Positions 1 to 6,279 of a stretch of DNA of 6,279 nt are shown in pieces. Every line of letters starts with the position of its first letter. Position 1 is the stretch's first letter. The translations under genes were made by a program, and so were the position numbers. This DNA comes from a virus (Duplodnaviria; Heunggongvirae; Uroviricota; Caudoviricetes): the IMG/VR virus record IMGVR_UViG_2681813262_000009; one strand, 5' to 3'. The notes below the pieces were generated by a model. The model was not told the DNA's origin. It was given only the letters and a program-made list of their open reading frames with translations, and made no database searches.

Positions 1-29
1 CAACTGGATATTTTTACAGTATTAAGCAT
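1..29 (-). CDS. 5' end (first ~9 codons, MLNTVKISS...) of a DNA methyltransferase gene; the gene body continues leftwards beyond the window
   Basis: Bases 1-29 are identical to 4063-4091, which is the N-terminus of the 3462..4091 minus-strand ORF carrying a DPPY motif. Whether this copy is intact cannot be seen. Confidence 0.5.
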
Positions 30-61
30 GGATCATTAAGCCTGTCTCTGATAGGCTCATT

Positions 62-80
62 CTGCTTTTGCGCAAAGCAG
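62..80. promoter_or_regulatory. Imperfect palindrome ctgcttttgcgcaaagcag about 35-50 bp upstream of the methyltransferase start; possible operator
   Basis: 7-bp arms ctgcttt/aaagcag around a tgcgc core, seen in the sequence. Function is inferred only. Confidence 0.2.
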
Positions 81-121
81 TGGGCCTGAGGTTTGCTTGT
101 GAACCCAACGCATGAGCAGAT

Positions 122-152
122 GGCTGGTGGGTGCCCCTAACACCCACCAGCC
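122..152. repeat. Perfect 12-bp inverted repeat with 7-nt loop (ggctggtgggtg-cccctaa-cacccaccagcc)
   Basis: Exact reverse-complement arms seen in the sequence. No U-tract follows on either strand, so it is not a classical intrinsic terminator. It lies between the small-ORF terminator and the methyltransferase start. Confidence 0.5.
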
Positions 153-168
153 GCCCATTTACCACAAA

Positions 169-193
169 TAAAAAAGCCTTCACTGCGGAAGGC
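169..193 (-). terminator. Rho-independent terminator after the 65-aa ORF
   Basis: Minus strand reads GCCTTC-CGCAGT-GAAGGC followed by TTTTTTA. The stem contains the ORF stop codon TGA. Confidence 0.55.
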
Positions 194-377
194 GTCTGTA
201 ACAACCGAACTGATAGTCTGCCAGACCCGCCATAACCAGCTGGGTCAGTATTAACTGGCAGCGTTCGCGTGAAAGGTAAGTATTCTGCGCTATCTCCCCG
301 ACTGTCGCCGGTTCGGTAACGCTTAATTCATTAAACACCACTCTGGCGGTTTCTGTCATATCCTGCTGTTTTAGCAT
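180..377 (-). CDS. Hypothetical 65-aa protein, possibly a small winged-helix/HTH-like DNA-binding protein
   Basis: ORF track MLKQQDMTE...RRLPQ. ATG at 375-377 is preceded by AAGGA with ~6-nt spacing. It is identical in both repeat copies and followed by a terminator. The HTH guess rests on the helix-turn-helix-like stretch TVGEIAQNTYLSRERCQLILTQLVMAGL and is inference. Confidence 0.45.
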   Translation of the reverse strand: MLKQQDMTETARVVFNELSVTEPATVGEIAQNTYLSRERCQLILTQLVMAGLADYQFGCYRRLPQ

Positions 378-495
378 GTCTTTTCCTTTTCCGGTTAACG
401 TGACACACCAATAACTCTTGTCGAAAAAGCCAGCAAGCTGAAAGACAGGTATTCACCGCCACCAGCGCGTTTACTGTACTGACGCGATTTCAGTC

Positions 496-521
496 ATAAA
501 AAACCCGCTCGGCGGCGGGTT
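496..521 (-). terminator. tR'-like rho-independent terminator ending a short pR' transcript
   Basis: Minus strand reads AACCCGC-CGCCGA-GCGGGTT followed by TTTTAT, about 65 nt downstream of the predicted pR' start. Confidence 0.65.
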
Positions 522-553
522 GTAGAAACTCTTCTAACGTCAGGCATAAAACG

Positions 554-596
554 CCCATCGTTATGACGAATTTACCACAGATTCCGGAAAAATCAA
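554..596 (-). promoter_or_regulatory. Sigma70 late promoter resembling lambda pR' with a -10-like pause element; the Q-utilisation site is expected here
   Basis: Minus strand: -35 TTGATT (plus 591-596), 16-bp spacer, -10 TAAATT (plus 569-574), 6 nt, then AACGATGGG (plus 562-554). As I recall it, lambda pR' has the same TAAATT -10 followed by AACGATGGG. It sits immediately downstream of the Q-like gene. Confidence 0.6.
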
Positions 597-601
597 CCTT
601 G

Positions 602-1423
602 TTACCTAGTTACCTTTTTTAACTGCCGCTCAGCCCATGCTTCTTCAATATCAAACCGGGTCACCAGCGCATCATAAAATTTCTTAACTGTTTTTTCCCA
701 TGACGCGCGTGTTATCTGGTTTGTCACCTCGCATATAGCATTAAATGCCTCCGTTGATGGTAGTCTTTCATAGCCACGACCACCACAACGCTGGCAGTCT
801 CTGATAACAGGCATACCACGTTTTACCGACTCTTCACGATGAATGGCGACACCACGCCCACGGCAATCCTTACAGGCGGTGGAAACCTCACCCTTTCCGC
901 CACACTCCGGACAGGCAACTTTTACCACCTCCCTGACTTTTTTCCATTCTTCCCAGTAAGACGGATACACACCTTTCGTACACTTTGCCCATACCGGCGG
1001 CTTACCATCCGGATACTGGACCTTGTTTGTAAAAACTACGCTTTCAATAAATTTTTCCCCATAGCAACAAGGGCACTGCTTTTTACTCGCTGCGCTGCGG
1101 GCATAATCCTCAAAAGCGTACGAAGCCATAATGCGCATCACTACCGGTTTTATTTCTGCCGGAAGTTTTCTCAACGCCGCCACACGATCGCACCGACTGA
1201 GTGCATAATCTGCCAGTAATTCTGTTGCCCGCGCCCTGTCATTCATACTGATGCCCATTTTCCCCAGGAACGCAGAAAACCCCATCTCAGCCCGATTCTG
1301 TGTCATGCCCTGCGCGGCCATCACATCAGTGATACTCAGCGCATCTTTTGACGTTGAGGCCGATGCATCGGTCAGGCAAGGGGATTTTGGGGAGTAGTAT
1401 TTCGGTAAATCTTCCAGTTTCAT
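602..1423 (-). CDS. Phage antitermination protein Q (long Q family of enterobacterial lambdoid prophages), 273 aa, cysteine-rich
   Basis: ORF track. Position is immediately after rusA and immediately before a pR'-like promoter/terminator. Contains CxxC motifs (CPCC, CPECGGKG, CKDCRGRG, CQRCGGRG) suggesting zinc binding. N- and C-terminal sequence resembles what I recall of prophage Q homologues. Start overlaps the rusA stop (ATGA). Confidence 0.75.
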   Translation of the reverse strand: MKLEDLPKYYSPKSPCLTDASASTSKDALSITDVMAAQGMTQNRAEMGFSAFLGKMGISMNDRARATELLADYALSRCDRVAALRKLPAEIKPVVMRIMASYAFEDYARSAASKKQCPCCYGEKFIESVVFTNKVQYPDGKPPVWAKCTKGVYPSYWEEWKKVREVVKVACPECGGKGEVSTACKDCRGRGVAIHREESVKRGMPVIRDCQRCGGRGYERLPSTEAFNAICEVTNQITRASWEKTVKKFYDALVTRFDIEEAWAERQLKKVTR

Positions 1424-1794
1424 TTTTTGACCTGCTCTTCATGCATTATGGGGTAAATCTTCACCCCCAGACGTCCACCAGATACTGGCTGACCACGAAC
1501 GATATTGATTTCATCAAACTGCTCATCGTCCATTAACACTCCCGCATGTGTCAGTGCATCCAGTGGTGCTTTCAGGATATTGTCCAGGTCACGACGGCGC
1601 TTATCCGGTGGCTCTGCAATAATCTTTATCGCCAGTCTTCCGGACAGGCTTAATTTCAGTCGCTGCTGACGGACAATAAGCGCCACATCCCGGCGATAAC
1701 GCTCACCGGCTTTTGATACAAAATATGTGTTGTCACGACGTCGCCAGTAAGTATTCACCGTCGGCGGATAAGGTAAAATAAACTCATGGCGCAT
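1420..1794 (-). CDS. rusA: RusA-family Holliday-junction resolvase (crossover junction endodeoxyribonuclease), 124 aa
   Basis: ORF track. The motif PDKRRRDLDNILKAPLDALTHAGVLMDD matches the conserved RusA catalytic region (PDRRRRDLDN...DAL). Translationally coupled to both neighbours. Confidence 0.85.
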   Translation of the reverse strand: MRHEFILPYPPTVNTYWRRRDNTYFVSKAGERYRRDVALIVRQQRLKLSLSGRLAIKIIAEPPDKRRRDLDNILKAPLDALTHAGVLMDDEQFDEINIVRGQPVSGGRLGVKIYPIMHEEQVKK

Positions 1795-2051
1795 CAGCGC
1801 AGCACCTCCTGCACCAGTTTTTCAAACTTTCCGACTCTGGTTTCCAGCTCTGCCACACAGTCCACCAGCTCATCTACTGCTTTCTGTGCGCGATGCTTCG
1901 CCTGCATCAGTTCCCGAAGCGCGGGTACCATATCTTTACGGATAGCGTCTTTTGTTATGCCCGTTTTTTCGAGTTGTTCAGCATGACGCAGCATTTCCTG
2001 CGCGTGTTTACGCAATTGTTCAGGGGTAAAAGTCATTGTCTGGTTGTTCAA
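1794..2051 (-). CDS. Hypothetical phage nin-region protein (85 aa from TTG at 2051, or 80 aa from ATG at 2036), predicted helical
   Basis: ORF track. Stop overlaps the rusA start (TGATG). GGAG lies 9 nt upstream of the TTG. An in-frame stop at 2067-2069 prevents any further upstream extension. Confidence 0.55.
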   Translation of the reverse strand: MNNQTMTFTPEQLRKHAQEMLRHAEQLEKTGITKDAIRKDMVPALRELMQAKHRAQKAVDELVDCVAELETRVGKFEKLVQEVLR

Positions 2052-2171
2052 AAGAAACGCTCCATCTTACTGCTGTCAGTTCGTTTATTACTGTATCTGC
2101 GCGGATTGCCGGGCTTCATGGGAGTGGAAAGCACCCGTGCACTTTCCTGGTCCACAGGCAGAAAATGTCCG

Positions 2172-2212
2172 TAGACTGGCCCCCTGAATCTCCAGACAAC
2201 CAGTATCACTTA
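2172..2212. repeat. IS2 left terminal inverted repeat (IRL)
   Basis: Imperfect match to the reverse complement of 3462-3502 (shared ...TTCCAGACA...TATCACTTA). Confidence 0.85.
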
Positions 2213-2262
2213 AATAAGTGATAGTCTTAATACTAGTTTTTAGACTAGTCATTGGAGTACAG

Positions 2263-2628
2263 ATGATTGATGTCTTAGGGCCGGAGAAACGCAGACGGCG
2301 TACCACACAGGAAAAGATCGCAATTGTTCAGCAGAGCTTTGAACCGGGGATGACGGTCTCCCTCGTTGCCCGGCAACATGGTGTAGCAGCCAGCCAGTTA
2401 TTTCTCTGGCGTAAGCAATACCAGGAAGGAAGTCTTACTGCTGTCGCCGCCGGAGAACAGGTTGTTCCTGCCTCTGAACTTGCTGCCGCCATGAAGCAGA
2501 TTAAAGAACTCCAGCGCCTGCTCGGCAAGAAAACGATGGAAAATGAACTCCTCAAAGAAGCCGTTGAATATGGACGGGCAAAAAAGTGGATAGCGCACGC
2601 GCCCTTATTGCCCGGGGATGGGGAGTAA
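2263..2628 (+). CDS. insC: IS2 OrfA (InsC), 121 aa, HTH transposase N-terminal component
   Basis: ATG at 2263 preceded by GGAG. Protein [29 protein letters not shown]... The ORF track's extended 136-aa start at 2218 is upstream of this site. Confidence 0.9.
2580..2586 (+). other. Programmed -1 ribosomal frameshift heptamer A AAA AAG joining orfA to orfB
   Basis: aaaaaag at 2580-2586 lies in the orfA frame (GCA AAA AAG TGG), and orfB is in the -1 frame overlapping here. This is the classic IS3-family arrangement. Confidence 0.8.
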
Positions 2629-3491
2629 GCTTAGTCAGCCGTTGTCTCCGGGTGTCGCGTGCGCAGTTGCACGTCATTCTCAGACGAACCGATGACTGGA
2701 TGGATGGCCGCCGCAGTCGTCACACTGATGATACGGATGTGCTTCTCCGTATACACCATGTTATCGGAGAGCTGCCCACGTATGGTTATCGTCGGGTATG
2801 GGCGCTGCTTCGCAGACAGGCAGAACTTGATGGTATGCCTGCGATCAATGCCAAACGTGTTTACCGGATCATGCGCCAGAATGCGCTGTTGCTTGAGCGA
2901 AAACCTGCTGTACCGCCATCGAAACGGGCACATACAGGCAGAGTGGCCGTGAAAGAAAGCAATCAGCGATGGTGCTCTGACGGGTTCGAGTTCTGCTGTG
3001 ATAACGGAGAGAGACTGCGTGTCACGTTCGCGCTGGACTGCTGTGATCGTGAGGCACTGCACTGGGCGGTGACTACCGGCGGCTTCAACAGTGAAACAGT
3101 ACAGGACGTCATGCTGGGAGCGGTGGAACGCCGCTTCGGCAACGATCTTCCGTCGTCTCCAGTGGAGTGGCTGACGGATAATGGTTCATGCTACCGGGCT
3201 AATGAAACACGCCAGTTCGCCCGGATGTTGGGACTTGAACCGAAGAACACGGCGGTGCGGAGTCCGGAGAGTAACGGAATAGCAGAGAGCTTCGTGAAAA
3301 CGATAAAGCGTGACTACATCAGTATCATGCCCAAACCAGACGGGTTAACGGCAGCAAAGAACCTTGCAGAGGCGTTCGAGCATTATAACGAATGGCATCC
3401 GCATAGTGCGCTGGGTTATCGCTCGCCACGGGAATATCTGCGGCAGCGGGCTTGTAATGGGTTAAGTGATAACAGATGTCTGGAAATATAG
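2586..3491 (+). CDS. insD: IS2 OrfB (InsD), transposase catalytic (DDE) component, 301 aa; normally made as an OrfAB fusion by frameshifting
   Basis: ORF track [14 protein letters not shown]...[14 protein letters not shown]..., in the -1 frame relative to orfA. Confidence 0.9.
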
Positions 3492-3502
3492 GGGCAAATC
3501 CA
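3462..3502. repeat. IS2 right terminal inverted repeat (IRR)
   Basis: The reverse complement TGGATTTGCCCCTATATTTCCAGACATCTGTTATCACTTA pairs with IRL. Confidence 0.85.
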
Positions 3503-4091
3503 AGGCACTGAACCAGTGCGACACCATGTTTTTCTTTCCTGTGGCATCTGCAATCTGTTTTGCCGTTATCCCCAGGGCCGCGCGCGCATCACGAAAGTAA
3601 GAAATCAGCGGGGCCATCACATGCTGTTTCAGTGCACTGCCCTTCGCCGCATACCCGGCATCTTTCGGACGATACGGCCCCTGATAATGTTCCGCGAACA
3701 GAATGCGCTCTGTGGCGGGGAAATACGCCCGCAGGCTTTCCTTGTTGCATCCGTTCCAGCGTCCGGACGGCTTCGCCCAGATAATATGGTTCAGCACACT
3801 GAAGCGTTCACGCATCATGATTTCGATATCAGATGCCAGGCGATGACCACAGAACAGGTAAAGACTTCCGGCAGGTTTCAGCACCCGCCAGAACTGCGCC
3901 AGACACTGGTCCAGCCACTTCAGGTAATCATCGTCGCCCTTCCACTGGTTATCCCAGCCCTCAGGCTTCACTTTAAAGTACGGCGGGTCCGTGACTATCA
4001 GGTCAACAGAATTTTCGGGTAACGACCGGATAAATTCCAGGCAGTCGGCGTTGATTAACTCGCAACTGGATATTTTTACAGTATTAAGCAT
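3503..4091 (-). pseudogene. Beta-class DNA methyltransferase (N6-adenine/N4-cytosine type, DPPY motif) truncated after codon 196 by IS2
   Basis: ORF 3462..4091 has DLIVTDPPYF at residues 30-39. Only the first 196 codons are non-IS sequence; the last 13 codons and the stop come from the IS2 right end. The C-terminal region expected to bind SAM is absent. Confidence 0.8.
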
Positions 4092-4123
4092 GGATCATTA
4101 AGCCTGTCTCTGATAGGCTCATT

Positions 4124-4142
4124 CTGCTTTTGCGCAAAGCAG
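4124..4142. promoter_or_regulatory. Copy 2 of the imperfect palindrome upstream of the methyltransferase start
   Basis: Identical to 62-80. Confidence 0.2.
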
Positions 4143-4183
4143 TGGGCCTGAGGTTTGCTTGTGAACCCAACGCATGAGCAGAT

Positions 4184-4214
4184 GGCTGGTGGGTGCCCCT
4201 AACACCCACCAGCC
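4184..4214. repeat. Copy 2 of the perfect 12-bp inverted repeat with 7-nt loop
   Basis: Identical to 122-152. Confidence 0.5.
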
Positions 4215-4230
4215 GCCCATTTACCACAAA

Positions 4231-4255
4231 TAAAAAAGCCTTCACTGCGGAAGGC
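4231..4255 (-). terminator. Rho-independent terminator after the 65-aa ORF (copy 2)
   Basis: Identical to 169-193. Confidence 0.55.
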
Positions 4256-4439
4256 GTCTGTAACAACCGAACTGATAGTCTGCCAGACCCGCCATAACCA
4301 GCTGGGTCAGTATTAACTGGCAGCGTTCGCGTGAAAGGTAAGTATTCTGCGCTATCTCCCCGACTGTCGCCGGTTCGGTAACGCTTAATTCATTAAACAC
4401 CACTCTGGCGGTTTCTGTCATATCCTGCTGTTTTAGCAT
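4242..4439 (-). CDS. Hypothetical 65-aa protein (copy 2), identical protein to 180..377
   Basis: Start taken as the ATG homologous to copy 1 (4437-4439). The ORF track's 94-aa form (to 4526) arises only because a 2-bp indel at about 4446 brings an upstream ATG into frame. Confidence 0.45.
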   Translation of the reverse strand: MLKQQDMTETARVVFNELSVTEPATVGEIAQNTYLSRERCQLILTQLVMAGLADYQFGCYRRLPQ

Positions 4440-4558
4440 GTCTTTTTCCCTTTTCCGGTTAACGTGACACACCAATAACTCTTGTCGAAAAAGCCAGCAA
4501 GCTGAAAGACAGGTATTCACCGCCACCAGCGCGTTTACTGTACTGACGCGATTTCAGT

Positions 4559-4584
4559 CATAAAAAACCCGCCAGGCGGCGGGG
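4559..4584 (-). terminator. tR'-like terminator (copy 2) with a different stem-loop sequence
   Basis: Minus strand reads CCCGCC-GCCT-GGCGGG followed by TTTTTTAT. The stem differs from copy 1 but keeps a GC stem plus U-tract. Confidence 0.65.
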
Positions 4585-4617
4585 TGTAAAAAATCTTCTA
4601 ACGTCAGGCATAAAACG

Positions 4618-4660
4618 CCCATCGTTAGAGCAAATTTACCACAGATTCGGGAAAAATCAA
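4618..4660 (-). promoter_or_regulatory. pR'-like late promoter with pause element (copy 2)
   Basis: -35 TTGATT (4655-4660), 16-bp spacer, -10 TAAATT (4633-4638), then AACGATGGG (4626-4618) are all conserved although the surrounding bases differ from copy 1. Confidence 0.6.
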
Positions 4661-4665
4661 CAACA

Positions 4666-5484
4666 CTATCGCGTTACCCTCTTTAACTGCCGCTCCGCCC
4701 ATGCCTCTTCAATGTCAAACCGAACCACCAACGTATCGTAAAAGCGTTTCACTGATTTTTTCCACGTATCAAGCGTGATAGCACTCGTCACTTTGCATAT
4801 GGCATTAAATGCCTCCGTTGATGGCAGCCTTTCACAGCCACGACCACCACAACGCTGGCAGTCTCTGATAACAGGCATACCACGTTTTACCGACTCTTCA
4901 CGATGAATGGCGACACCACGCCCACGGCAATCCTTACAGGCGGTGGAAACCTCACCCTTTCCGCCACACTCCGGACAGGCAACTTTTACCACCTCCCATT
5001 TTTTCCATTCTTCCCAGTAAGACGGATACACACCTTTCGTACACTTTGCCCATACCGGCGGCTTACCATCCGGATACTGGACCTTGTTTGTAAAAACTAC
5101 GCTTTCAATAAATTTTTCCCCATAGCAACAAGGGCACTGCTTTTTACTCGCTGCGCTGCGGGCATAATCCTCAAAAGCGTACGAAGCCATAATGCGCATC
5201 ACTACCGGTTTTATTTCTGCCGGAAGTTTTCTCAACGCCGCCACACGATCGCACCGACTGAGTGCATAATCTGCCAGTAATTCTGTTGCCCGCGCCCTGT
5301 CATTCATACTGATGCCCATTTTCCCCAGGAACGCAGAAAACCCCATCTCAGCCCGATTCTGTGTCATGCCCTGCGCGGCCATCACATCAGTGATACTCAG
5401 CGCATCTTTTGACGTTGAGGCCGATGCATCGGTCAGGCAAGGGGATTTTGGGGAGTAGTATTTCGGTAAATCTTCCAGTTTCAT
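4666..5484 (-). CDS. Phage antitermination protein Q (copy 2), 272 aa; variant allele with a one-residue deletion and a diverged C-terminal ~55 aa
   Basis: ORF track. Identical to copy 1 over most of its length, with KKVREVV changed to KKWEVV and about 12 substitutions in the last ~55 residues. Confidence 0.75.
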   Translation of the reverse strand: MKLEDLPKYYSPKSPCLTDASASTSKDALSITDVMAAQGMTQNRAEMGFSAFLGKMGISMNDRARATELLADYALSRCDRVAALRKLPAEIKPVVMRIMASYAFEDYARSAASKKQCPCCYGEKFIESVVFTNKVQYPDGKPPVWAKCTKGVYPSYWEEWKKWEVVKVACPECGGKGEVSTACKDCRGRGVAIHREESVKRGMPVIRDCQRCGGRGCERLPSTEAFNAICKVTSAITLDTWKKSVKRFYDTLVVRFDIEEAWAERQLKRVTR

Positions 5485-5855
5485 TTTTTGACCTGCCCTT
5501 CAAGCATTATGGGGTAAATCTTCACCCCCAGACGTCCACCAGATACTGGCTGACCACGAACGATATTGATTTCATCAAACTGCTCATCGTCCATTAACAC
5601 TCCCGCATGTGTCAGTGCATCCAGTGGTGCTTTCAGGATATTGTCCAGGTCACGACGGCGCTTATCCGGTGGCTCTGCAATAATCTTTATCGCCAGTCTT
5701 CCGGACAGGCTTAATTTCAGTCGCTGCTGACGGACAATAAGCGCCACATCCCGGCGATAACGCTCACCGGCTTTTGATACAAAATATGTGTTGTCACGAC
5801 GTCGCCAGTAAGTATTCACCGTCGGCGGATAAGGTAAAATAAACTCATGGCGCAT
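5481..5855 (-). CDS. rusA: RusA-family Holliday-junction resolvase (copy 2)
   Basis: ORF track. Differs from copy 1 at two C-terminal residues (PIMLEGQVKK versus PIMHEEQVKK). Confidence 0.85.
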   Translation of the reverse strand: MRHEFILPYPPTVNTYWRRRDNTYFVSKAGERYRRDVALIVRQQRLKLSLSGRLAIKIIAEPPDKRRRDLDNILKAPLDALTHAGVLMDDEQFDEINIVRGQPVSGGRLGVKIYPIMLEGQVKK

Positions 5856-6112
5856 CAGCGCAGCACCTCCTGCACCAGTTTTTCAAACTTTCCGACTCTG
5901 GTTTCCAGCTCTGCCACACAGTCCACCAGCTCATCTACTGCTTTCTGTGCGCGATGCTTCGCCTGCATCAGTTCCCGAAGCGCGGGTACCATATCTTTAC
6001 GGATAGCGTCTTTTGTTATGCCCGTTTTTTCGAGTTGTTCAGCATGACGCAGCATTTCCTGCGCGTGTTTACGCAATTGTTCAGGGGTAAAAGTCATTGT
6101 CTGGTTGTTCAA
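5855..6112 (-). CDS. Hypothetical phage nin-region protein (copy 2)
   Basis: Identical to 1794..2051. Confidence 0.55.
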   Translation of the reverse strand: MNNQTMTFTPEQLRKHAQEMLRHAEQLEKTGITKDAIRKDMVPALRELMQAKHRAQKAVDELVDCVAELETRVGKFEKLVQEVLR

Positions 6113-6232
6113 AAGAAACGCTCCATCTTACTGCTGTCAGTTCGTTTATTACTGTATCTGCGCGGATTGCCGGGCTTCATGGGAGTGGAAAGCACCCGTG
6201 CACTTTCCTGGTCCACAGGCAGAAAATGTCCG

Positions 6233-6279
6233 TAGACTGGCCCCCTGAATCTCCAGACAACCAGTATCACTTAAATAAG
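6233..6279 (+). mobile_element. IS2 left end (first 47 bp), truncated by the window edge
   Basis: TAGACTGGCCCCCTGAATCTCCAGACAACCAGTATCACTTAAATAAG is identical to 2172-2218 and sits at the same junction with the flanking prophage DNA. Confidence 0.9.

Follow-up and report, generated by a model that had tools for sequence, protein, structure and literature searches.

A small winged-helix gene linked to an M.EcoGII-family DNA methyltransferase in lambdoid prophages: a candidate regulator beside a structured leader RNA

Why does a gene of 65 codons precede the gene of a DNA methyltransferase in lambdoid prophages, and what does its product do there? The question is raised by a stretch of 6,279 nucleotides (nt) from the IMG/VR virus record IMGVR_UViG_2681813262_000009 (Caudoviricetes), which is called here, as a whole, the window. 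All relevant genes of the window are carried by its minus strand, and the small gene, termed ORF65 after its open reading frame (ORF) of 65 amino acids (aa), is present twice, once in each of two copies of a late-regulatory segment. A preliminary description, made from the letters alone, had speculated about a controller-like regulator of the methyltransferase. The answer favoured here is of a related kind and is held tentatively: ORF65 is possibly a dedicated regulator of the methyltransferase, similar in role to the Com protein of phage Mu and not homologous to it. That ORF65 is a regulator at all is inferred.

ORF65 is a real and conserved gene, and its family is narrow. A search of 1.84 billion proteins gave homologues in 334 clusters at 90% identity, with 82 representatives at 50%. 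The family members are 63-69 aa long, those with a name come from Enterobacterales only, and the median ratio of nonsynonymous to synonymous substitution rates (dN/dS) is 0.28 (444 pairs). The ORF that the preliminary description had proposed is confirmed as a gene, together with its ribosome-binding site, a Shine-Dalgarno sequence AGGA located 6-7 nt 5' of the ATG in both copies. The PHROG 331 profile, to which the database assigns no function, matches residues 1-64 with E = 1.4e-37.

Directly upstream of the ATG, the two copies differ by a 2-bp indel at position 384 (AAAAGGAAAAGAC vs AAAAGGGAAAAAGAC), which had been thought able to alter translation. This expectation was abandoned: the indel is an ordinary polymorphism in the length of an A/G homopolymer, and the Shine-Dalgarno sequence is kept. 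Among 52 E. coli-like loci, the form of copy 2 occurs in 34, that of copy 1 in 7 and other lengths in 11, with AGG(G)A preserved in all of them. Because the indel brings a non-conserved upstream GTG into frame, the 94-aa ORF called in copy 2 (4242..4526) is spurious, and the 94-106-aa versions of ORF65 in databases arise in the same way. The GTG-start version of 94 aa was rejected as a gene, its N-terminal extensions being unrelated between homologues and broken by the indel. One such protein, of 94 aa from Shigella sonnei, contains a segment 100% identical to 95% of ORF65.

The linkage between ORF65 and the methyltransferase is near-obligate. It was surveyed at 36 loci, one genome per species, from the genera Escherichia, Salmonella, Klebsiella, Citrobacter, Buttiauxella, Proteus, Providencia, Mangrovibacter, Mixta, Erwinia and Plesiomonas. 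An orthologous methyltransferase of 347-357 aa (59-99% identity) lies immediately 3' of ORF65 at 31 of them (30 found by blastp, and L029 by tblastn), and the spacer between the two genes is 142-154 nt long at the 29 loci where it was directly measured. Two of the exceptions lie at contig ends (L003, with the start of the methyltransferase still visible, and L020). The other three are decayed loci: L018 and L038 hold only ORF fragments, and in L036 the methyltransferase is truncated after ~25 codons. Seen from the side of the enzyme, ORF65 lies upstream at 78 of 80 IMG/VR loci, where one exception is a contig end and the other a deletion extending into the spacer. A second scan of viral contigs, with the methyltransferase alignment as query, again returned close E. 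coli relatives only. Behind each of five divergent homologues of ORF65 (38-49% identity) stands a PF01555 methyltransferase, and the Q antiterminators ahead of these homologues belong to three different Pfam families. The prediction that the next gene encodes a DNA methyltransferase is thus borne out, both by the window gene 3' of ORF65, which matches the Pfam N6_N4 DNA methyltransferase family with E = 2.6e-17, and by adjacency in almost every Enterobacterales locus examined.

The two genes also diverge together. Pairwise identities of ORF65 correlate with those of the methyltransferase at r = 0.67 (561 pairs), compared with 0.23 for ORF65 and its upstream gene. The adjacency, this co-divergence and the mosaic nature of the upstream gene indicate that ORF65 and the enzyme are inherited as one unit behind interchangeable modules of Q, late promoter (pR') and terminator (tR'). 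The unit, called here the cassette, is found in 2284 of 5426 complete E. coli genomes (42%), in at most 8 copies per genome, and many Stx2 phages carry it between Q and stx2. In phiP27, the homologue L23 stands between Q/GIY-YIG and the methylase L24, which is followed by tRNA genes and stx2e; in E. coli 55989 the order is Q, ORF, methyltransferase, tRNAs and lysis genes. Extra genes are tolerated between Q and the cassette. Examples are the GIY-YIG nuclease gene of phiP27 (L001 5592..6821) and, in another lineage that includes one of the divergent homologues (P0189, loci L138 and L139), opposite-strand Usp and cytochrome-b-like morons (L138 1569..2808).

Such linkage bears directly on the proposal that ORF65 is an independent moron, for instance a host-directed regulator made by the prophage, and that its adjacency to an unrelated methyltransferase reflects the co-inheritance of a short module. 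A moron should have its own promoter and terminator and so be expressible from the repressed prophage. In E. coli, terminators do flank ORF65, and the upstream one, ahead of the cassette, is conserved in nearly all related loci. The downstream one is the intrinsic terminator, with the stop codon in its stem, that the preliminary description had assigned to ORF65: its GCCTTC/GAAGGC stem overlaps the TGA stop and co-varies within Enterobacteriaceae, but the hairpin is a convincing terminator in E. coli only and is absent in Proteus and Providencia. The earlier claim therefore stands for E. coli and fails as regards conservation outside Enterobacteriaceae. The motif upstream of ORF65, described below, resembles a promoter in geometry only. 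The moron proposal would also suit the faster evolution of ORF65 (mean pairwise identity 53%, against 69% for the methyltransferase) and its survival in the decayed locus L036, where the enzyme is truncated. However, the adjacency is kept in Escherichia, Proteus and Plesiomonas alike and at identities as low as 38%, while the upstream gene is swapped freely, and no homologue was seen in another context among the loci examined. An independent moron is therefore very unlikely.

The enzyme which accompanies ORF65 is an N6-adenine DNA methyltransferase of the M.EcoGI/GII family. Residues 1-196 of the E. coli 55989 enzyme, a protein of 349 aa, are matched by the window fragment with 99% identity; that protein is itself 95% identical to the methyltransferase of phage 1720a-02. 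Murray et al. found the phage 1720a-02 enzyme very similar to M.EcoGII, 349 aa in length (PMC5778455). M.EcoGII accepts adenine in every sequence context as a substrate; constitutive expression of the enzyme is deleterious, its native lysogen does not express it, and its expression required an mcr/mrr-deficient host (PMC5778455). Its discoverers described no mechanism for the silencing in the prophage (PMC5778455). According to a later paper, the M.EcoGI/GII clade comes mostly from prophage regions of Enterobacteria and has a central recognition domain containing a helix-turn-helix (HTH); a weak HTH_3 match at residues 167-195 of the window methyltransferase agrees with this. The gene 3' of ORF65 shares with M.EcoGI and M.EcoGII the 349-aa length, the DPPY...FxGxG beta-class motif order, the central HTH-containing target-recognition domain and the occurrence in enterobacterial prophages; in the window it is truncated by the insertion sequence IS2.

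The spacer between the two genes, ~150 nt in length, is better conserved than both flanking genes and is rich in compensatory changes. The preliminary description had pointed to palindromic elements before the methyltransferase. These are real and conserved, but they are not DNA operators; they belong rather to a strand-specific, co-varying RNA leader. The helices of this leader were defined on a MAFFT alignment of 39 sequences. The central one, helix X, pairs GGUCA-C-AAGC with GCUU-AC-UGAUC directly 5' of the methyltransferase AUG and is predicted to cover positions -1 to -14 of the start. In this alignment, 94.2% of cells are paired, compared with 31-46% when the partners are slid by 1-3 columns, and 12 two-sided pair changes stand against 1-7 in the slid controls. 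None of 500 shuffles reaches the observed pairing or covariation score. In the covariance-model alignment, 15 pairs have double changes, and again 0 of 500 shuffles reach any of five measures; over the two alignments together, slid partners are paired in 28-46% of cells. Helix X occurs in three complementary versions (AAGC/GCUU, GGA/UCY and GGGC/GCCC) and the hairpin P1 in at least five. The covariance model finds one match per locus, each abutting the methyltransferase ATG, and nothing else in 382 kb. Independent minimum free energy folds, computed for the leaders of E. coli and Proteus (z = -3.9 and -4.6), likewise place the start region inside paired structure. Since G-U pairs are frequent on the coding strand (e.g., pair 16:96 is G-U in 29 sequences and G-C in 19, and pair 110:187 is G-U in 23 and A-U in 19), the structure belongs to the sense RNA; a DNA cruciform or an antisense RNA was rejected for the same reason. 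The spacer is, as far as the structural model goes, a conserved, co-varying sense-strand leader RNA that is predicted to sequester the methyltransferase start. A comparison of the whole window with 4227 Rfam covariance models (E <= 1) gave no coding-strand match for the leader, the only match for it being sub-threshold, P26-like and on the opposite strand.

The leader may adopt a second conformation. Its 5' UGUGA can pair with UCACA in the upstream strand of helix X in 96% of cells, and it is hypothesised from the model that this alternative helix frees the start and forms first during transcription. A long-range TGGGC/GCCCA pairing, which would make a three-way junction, was rejected: it has a single double change, in L033, which fits the chosen structure too. 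In L131 (2325..2524), the leader has an insertion of ~30 nt inside P1 and is still matched by the covariance model with 132 bits. The invariant AUG in helix B opens a small ORF (158..57, minus strand) of 33 codons in E. coli, 7 in Klebsiella-type and 18 in Proteus-type leaders. With a length that varies in this way between genera, and no Shine-Dalgarno sequence, the 33-aa ORF was discarded as a gene and is probably untranslated.

The start of the methyltransferase is itself unusual, having no canonical Shine-Dalgarno sequence and a near-invariant TGATCYATG, of which GATCYATG is found in 38 of 39 leaders. TGATCYATG (35..27 and 4097..4089, minus strand) includes the Dam site GATC. In the RNA, UGAUC could pair with GAUCA, a stretch of the 16S rRNA close to its 3' end and just 5' of the anti-Shine-Dalgarno sequence, and judging by this complementarity UGAUC might serve as an atypical ribosome contact. 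Codons 4-10 (20..3 and 4082..4065, minus strand) contain a conserved hairpin, ACTGT..ACAGT, which has a compensatory version, ACTGG..CCAGT, in L140 and L036. The synonymous sites in these codons are frozen, which implies a constraint at the nucleotide level inside the coding region.

How could these elements work together? ORF65 would be the first gene of a self-contained "hypermethylase cassette" that heads the late operon of lambdoid prophages and is ordered as tR', the TTGCTG-N13-AGAGTTA motif described below, ORF65, the hairpin, the structured leader and the M.EcoGII-family methyltransferase. The enzyme is harmful to the cell and, in the lysogen, silent. After induction, Q-modified RNA polymerase would pass the terminators, yielding one RNA with both ORF65 and the methyltransferase. 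In this RNA, a segment ~60 nt upstream (GGUCACAAGC) would pair with the ~14 nt that precede the methyltransferase AUG (GCUUAnUGAUC), and in E. coli with the AUG as well; the resulting helix X would act as the default block on translation. Pairing of the upstream segment with the 5' UGUGA instead would free the start. ORF65, translated from the same transcript, would bind a conserved element, most likely the P1/domain-1 hairpin of the leader, and thereby set the timing and amount of methyltransferase translation, as Mu Com does for mom. ORF65 is favoured as the opener of this lock because it is the sole other component co-inherited with the enzyme and is translated just upstream on the same RNA. 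Nucleic-acid binding by ORF65, its target element and the direction of its effect, activation or repression, are parts of the scheme that we infer. The most specific form of the proposal is rather doubtful: in it, ORF65 would represent a new RNA-binding winged-helix family, a non-homologous analogue of Com, which flips the leader between the helix X and UGUGA/UCACA states and licenses M.EcoGII only in lytic growth.

The fold of ORF65 can accommodate several kinds of ligand. The AlphaFold2 model (pLDDT 90.8) has the order H1-H2-H3-beta-hairpin, which agrees with the winged-helix (wHTH) topology H1-S1-H2-H3-S2-wing-S3, and the sub-threshold Pfam matches are all to winged-helix families, namely TrmB, MarR_2, DprA_WH, HTH_24, Rrf2 and Crp. 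TrmB (PF01978), the label used by RefSeq, scores 18 bits, under the cut-off of 25.6. The HTH-like stretch noted earlier is therefore an HTH of the winged type according to AlphaFold2 and these Pfam matches, and not one of the Xre/HTH_3 type. No family of NCBIfam or PADLOC matches ORF65, and neither does any anti-defence family; a sequence search of the PDB reached no better than E = 0.056, with winged-helix domains of O-methyltransferases. Related folds include ArsR and MarR domains, Z-alpha domains, the RNA-binding winged helices of SelB and the dimerisation domains of O-methyltransferases. The fold of ORF65 is thus established as a minimal single-domain winged helix, which leaves its ligand unspecified. 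The profile search and structure prediction which the preliminary description had named as a check have thus given a profile match and a confident model.

Several results weigh against the scheme of a leader-binding regulator. The ORF65 family has a median net charge of -1 (range -5 to +3) and a median pI of 5.5, and such an acidic-to-neutral charge is unusual for a nucleic-acid-binding domain of 65 aa. The near-invariant helix 3 (CQLILTQLVMAGL), the most conserved stretch of the protein, is mostly hydrophobic and could be a protein interface. Cloned M.EcoGII is active without ORF65 (PMC5778455). On the side of the RNA, the covariance-model alignment was fitted to the structure, and its statistics are not independent of the model. 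The covariation comes mostly from a few deep splits (Enterobacteriaceae, Morganellaceae and Plesiomonas) and so represents few independent events, and the changes in the UGUGA/UCACA "ON" helix are one-sided only. Finally, L134 and L136/L137 keep ORF65 with a leader that is cut to a P1-like hairpin or replaced, undetected by the covariance model; ORF65 is therefore not strictly dependent on the full leader.

Some of these observations would suit a protein-binding accessory, which could be a partner or inhibitor of the enzyme or a counter to restriction of the type IV, m6A-dependent kind (Mrr-like or DpnI-like). The acidic-to-neutral charge fits such a role, as do the hydrophobic residues at helix-3 positions which are polar in the TrmB profile, as judged by comparing the alignments. 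Among the best sequence and Foldseek matches of ORF65 are the winged-helix domains by which O-methyltransferases dimerise and the ScpB-ScpA peptide-binding domain, and both the co-divergence with the enzyme and the need of M.EcoGII for an mcr/mrr-deficient host would be in line with it. On the other hand, M.EcoGII alone is fully active and non-specific, the searches of PADLOC and anti-defence families came back empty, and the conserved non-coding elements around ORF65 would be left unexplained. A protein-binding accessory is accordingly judged unlikely.

One of these non-coding elements leads to the main rival. Between the terminator and ORF65, every locus, leaderless ones included, contains the bipartite motif TTGCTG-N13-AGAGTTA(Y)NTGTRTG, which is invariant in 27 aligned representative loci, with fixed spacing and a variable spacer sequence. 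RNAalifold found no consensus structure in the block upstream of ORF65; a conserved 5'-untranslated hairpin at this place was rejected, being present only in Proteus-type sequences. The geometry of the motif is promoter-like and its role unexplained: no acceptable sigma-70 -10 hexamer is present in it, and a sigma-70 scan finds nothing there. The rival proposal is that ORF65 is a DNA-binding transcription factor which follows the logic of controller (C) or Aca proteins. As a dimer at TTGCTG-N13-AGAGTTA, it would raise or lower the activity of a weak internal promoter, which would drive ORF65, and the methyltransferase where no terminator intervenes, independently of pR' and Q.

Such a DNA-level regulator would agree with the habits of IclR, MarR, ArsR and TrmB winged helices, which mostly bind DNA, and with the status of the bipartite block as the only non-coding element present in every locus, even the leaderless ones. 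The fixed spacing, variable spacer and missing consensus RNA fold are what a promoter would show, and terminators both 5' and 3' of ORF65 make it a moron-like independent unit in E. coli; a local promoter would also be useful where opposite-strand genes part Q from the cassette. Against this, no promoter or operator is recognisable: the candidate -10 hexamers have no A-11 or T-7, the block has neither clear dyad symmetry nor a C-box, and the family is acidic. Moreover, the Q-driven late operon times expression without an internal promoter, and the sequestered start of the methyltransferase would be left without an explanation. The proposal is therefore regarded as somewhat unlikely, and the preferred reading continues to be that of ORF65 as a dedicated regulator of the methyltransferase.

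The arrangement upstream of the cassette is that of a lambdoid late operon (Table 1). The window includes two copies of the late-regulatory segment, 1..2218 and 4062..6279, which are 97.3% identical and each carry, in this order, a C-terminal fragment of a PHROG-2565 gene, RusA, a PF03589-type Q antiterminator, ORF65 and the DNA methyltransferase. The preliminary description was right that ORF65 is identical in both copies and that its upstream neighbourhood diverges. Apart from the 2-bp indel, 1..501 and 4062..4564 are the same throughout, and 60 of the 65 differences between the repeats lie within 502..~940 (copy 2: 4564..5002), which holds the upstream terminator, the pR'-like promoter and the C-terminus of Q. 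On either side of this patch the repeats are identical or nearly so; it is a typical mosaic recombination patch swapping a module of Q specificity and promoter.

In lambdoid phages, Q-dependent read-through of tR' is the transcriptional switch of the late operon, and a pR' with a nearby terminator, giving a short transcript, is the arrangement of the lambda 6S RNA and of StxS. In the window, the putative pR'-like late promoter lies directly 3' of the Q stop codon and was recognised by inspection, its score being below the threshold of the promoter scan. Together with the tR'-like terminator (596..495 and 4660..4558) it is predicted to give a short constitutive transcript of ~65-70 nt. The Rfam match in 596..495 is a chance-level one to the Trp leader only, driven by the terminator.

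The repeat structure of the window is bound up with IS2. The element interrupts the copy-2 methyltransferase behind codon 196 and links that copy to copy 1, and another IS2 end begins at 6235. The window is therefore a direct repeat of a ~4.06-kb unit comprising IS2, the truncated PHROG-2565 gene, RusA, Q, ORF65 and the truncated methyltransferase. Both repeats have IS2 at an identical junction, where the flanking GTCCG and AGGCA do not form a target-site duplication; this suggests an IS2-mediated rearrangement or amplification. None of the complete E. coli genomes in the collection covers >=80% of the window. The match of an 85-aa ORF (1794..2051 and 5855..6112, minus strand) to the PHROG 2565 profile, which has 204 positions, is confined to positions 121-203; the ORF is, for this reason, a 3' gene fragment whose 5' part was lost at the IS2 junction.

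Table 1. Positions of the cassette elements and neighbouring features in the window.
Feature	Copy	Position	Strand	Remarks
ORF65	1	180..377	-	65 aa, ATG start; PHROG 331; homologue of phiP27 L23
ORF65	2	4242..4439	-	nucleotide sequence identical to copy 1
ORF65 ribosome-binding region	1	378..392	-	AAAAGGAAAAGAC
ORF65 ribosome-binding region	2	4440..4456	-	AAAAGGGAAAAAGAC
Bipartite motif	1	403..437	-	TTGCTG (436..431) - N13 - AGAGTTA (418..412), then TGTGTGTCA
Bipartite motif	2	4467..4501	-	equivalent of copy 1
Stop-codon hairpin	1	166..193	-	GCCTTC..GAAGGC and T-tract; scan site 193..176
Stop-codon hairpin	2	4228..4255	-	scan site 4255..4238
Leader RNA	1	2..170	-	covariance-model match, 152 bits
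Leader RNA	2	4062..4232	-	covariance-model match, 157 bits
Helix B (AUGGG/CUCAU)	1	158-154/116-112	-	
Hairpin P1	1	152-141/133-122	-	
Anti-ribosome-binding-site helix X	1	105-95/41-31	-	copy 2: 4167-4157 with 4103-4093
Helix D	1	87-84/56-53	-	
Hairpin P3	1	80-74/68-62	-	
Coding-region hairpin	1	20-17/6-3	-	codons 4-10 of the enzyme
Methyltransferase, first codons	1	29..1	-	all that copy 1 shows
Methyltransferase (M.EcoGI/GII-family, N6-adenine), first 196 codons	2	3503..4091	-	cut off by IS2
tR'-like intrinsic terminator	1	495..521	-	terminator scan site 521..502
tR'-like intrinsic terminator	2	4558..4583	-	terminator scan site 4583..4568
pR'-like late promoter (putative)	1	569..596	-	TTGATT - 16 nt - TGg TAAATT, extended -10; by inspection
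pR'-like late promoter (putative)	2	4633..4660	-	by inspection
Q antiterminator, PF03589 type	1	602..1423	-	Pfam match
Q antiterminator	2	4666..5484	-	Pfam match
IS2		2172..3502	+	1331 bp; truncates the methyltransferase and parts the two repeats

The reading matters beyond this prophage, as M.EcoGII has found wide use in non-specific m6A "painting". If a small protein and a leader do control the enzyme, this would explain how a lethal hypermethylase is safely kept in lysogens, would provide a second, non-homologous example of the com-mom strategy, and would supply both a new RNA family and a function for a "hypothetical protein" that is very common. The cassette shares its transcript with stx2, and toxin expression could therefore also respond to the cassette's terminators and structures.

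The idea of a small regulator paired with a toxic phage DNA-modification enzyme is a known one, while in the literature searched, which includes the M.EcoGI/M.EcoGII papers, we found no description of the ORF65 family, the leader RNA or the bipartite motif. The known systems differ in how closely they resemble the cassette. The C proteins of restriction-modification systems (C.PvuII, C.AhdI and C.BamHI) likewise involve a small HTH gene just upstream of a gene related to DNA modification, which is harmful if expressed at the wrong time. However, these are Xre-type (HTH_3) dimers that act on C-box palindromes before their own gene and control a restriction endonuclease, whereas ORF65 is a winged helix and accompanies an orphan phage methyltransferase. 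HTH_3, an Xre-type fold of five helices and ~75-100 aa, has no match in ORF65. A C-box of the GACT-N3-AGTC type is absent upstream of ORF65, where one-mismatch matches elsewhere are confined to coding sequence and occur at chance frequency, and no restriction endonuclease is found nearby in the loci examined, in which the methyltransferase is followed by tRNA genes and by stx or lysis genes. ORF65 is not a member of the family of restriction-modification controllers; from the earlier proposal of a controller-like regulator, the tie to the methyltransferase is retained (adjacency, r = 0.67) and the affiliation with C proteins is given up on account of the fold, the lack of a C-box and the lack of an endonuclease.

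The Aca regulators are, according to one account, small HTH proteins encoded together with a phage counter-defence gene, whose harmful over-expression they limit (PMC13551039). ORF65 resembles them as a small HTH protein beside a phage counter-defence gene, but Aca proteins repress the acr promoter on DNA, and sometimes RNA, and both the protein families and the cargo are different. Compared with the TrmB, MarR, IclR and ArsR domains, ORF65 is acidic, has no second domain or recognisable dimerisation element, and reaches Pfam scores only below threshold. The signature residues of Z-alpha domains (N and Y in helix 3 and W in the wing) are absent from ORF65 on inspection.

The closest parallel is the com-mom operon of phage Mu. 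Com, a protein of 62 aa, binds a hairpin next to the structure that inhibits mom translation and opens this structure, thereby activating mom, and in Mu-like prophages com homologues lie upstream of non-specific adenine methyltransferases (PMC3299994, PMC6483171). In both systems a protein of ~62-65 aa is encoded directly upstream of an anti-restriction enzyme that modifies adenine and is toxic to the host; the two genes share one late transcript, and the start of the enzyme is buried in RNA structure, in the present case by prediction. With the com-hin1523-type operons of Mu-like prophages the likeness extends to the enzyme, which is a non-specific adenine methyltransferase in both. Com is, however, an RNA-binding CCCC zinc-finger protein, whereas ORF65 is a winged helix and has only two conserved cysteines, C40 and C59; the two proteins are therefore not homologous. 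The com gene overlaps mom, while here a structured leader of ~150 nt lies between the two genes, and the transcription control exerted on com-mom by Mu C, Dam and OxyR has its counterpart here in expression driven by Q and pR'.

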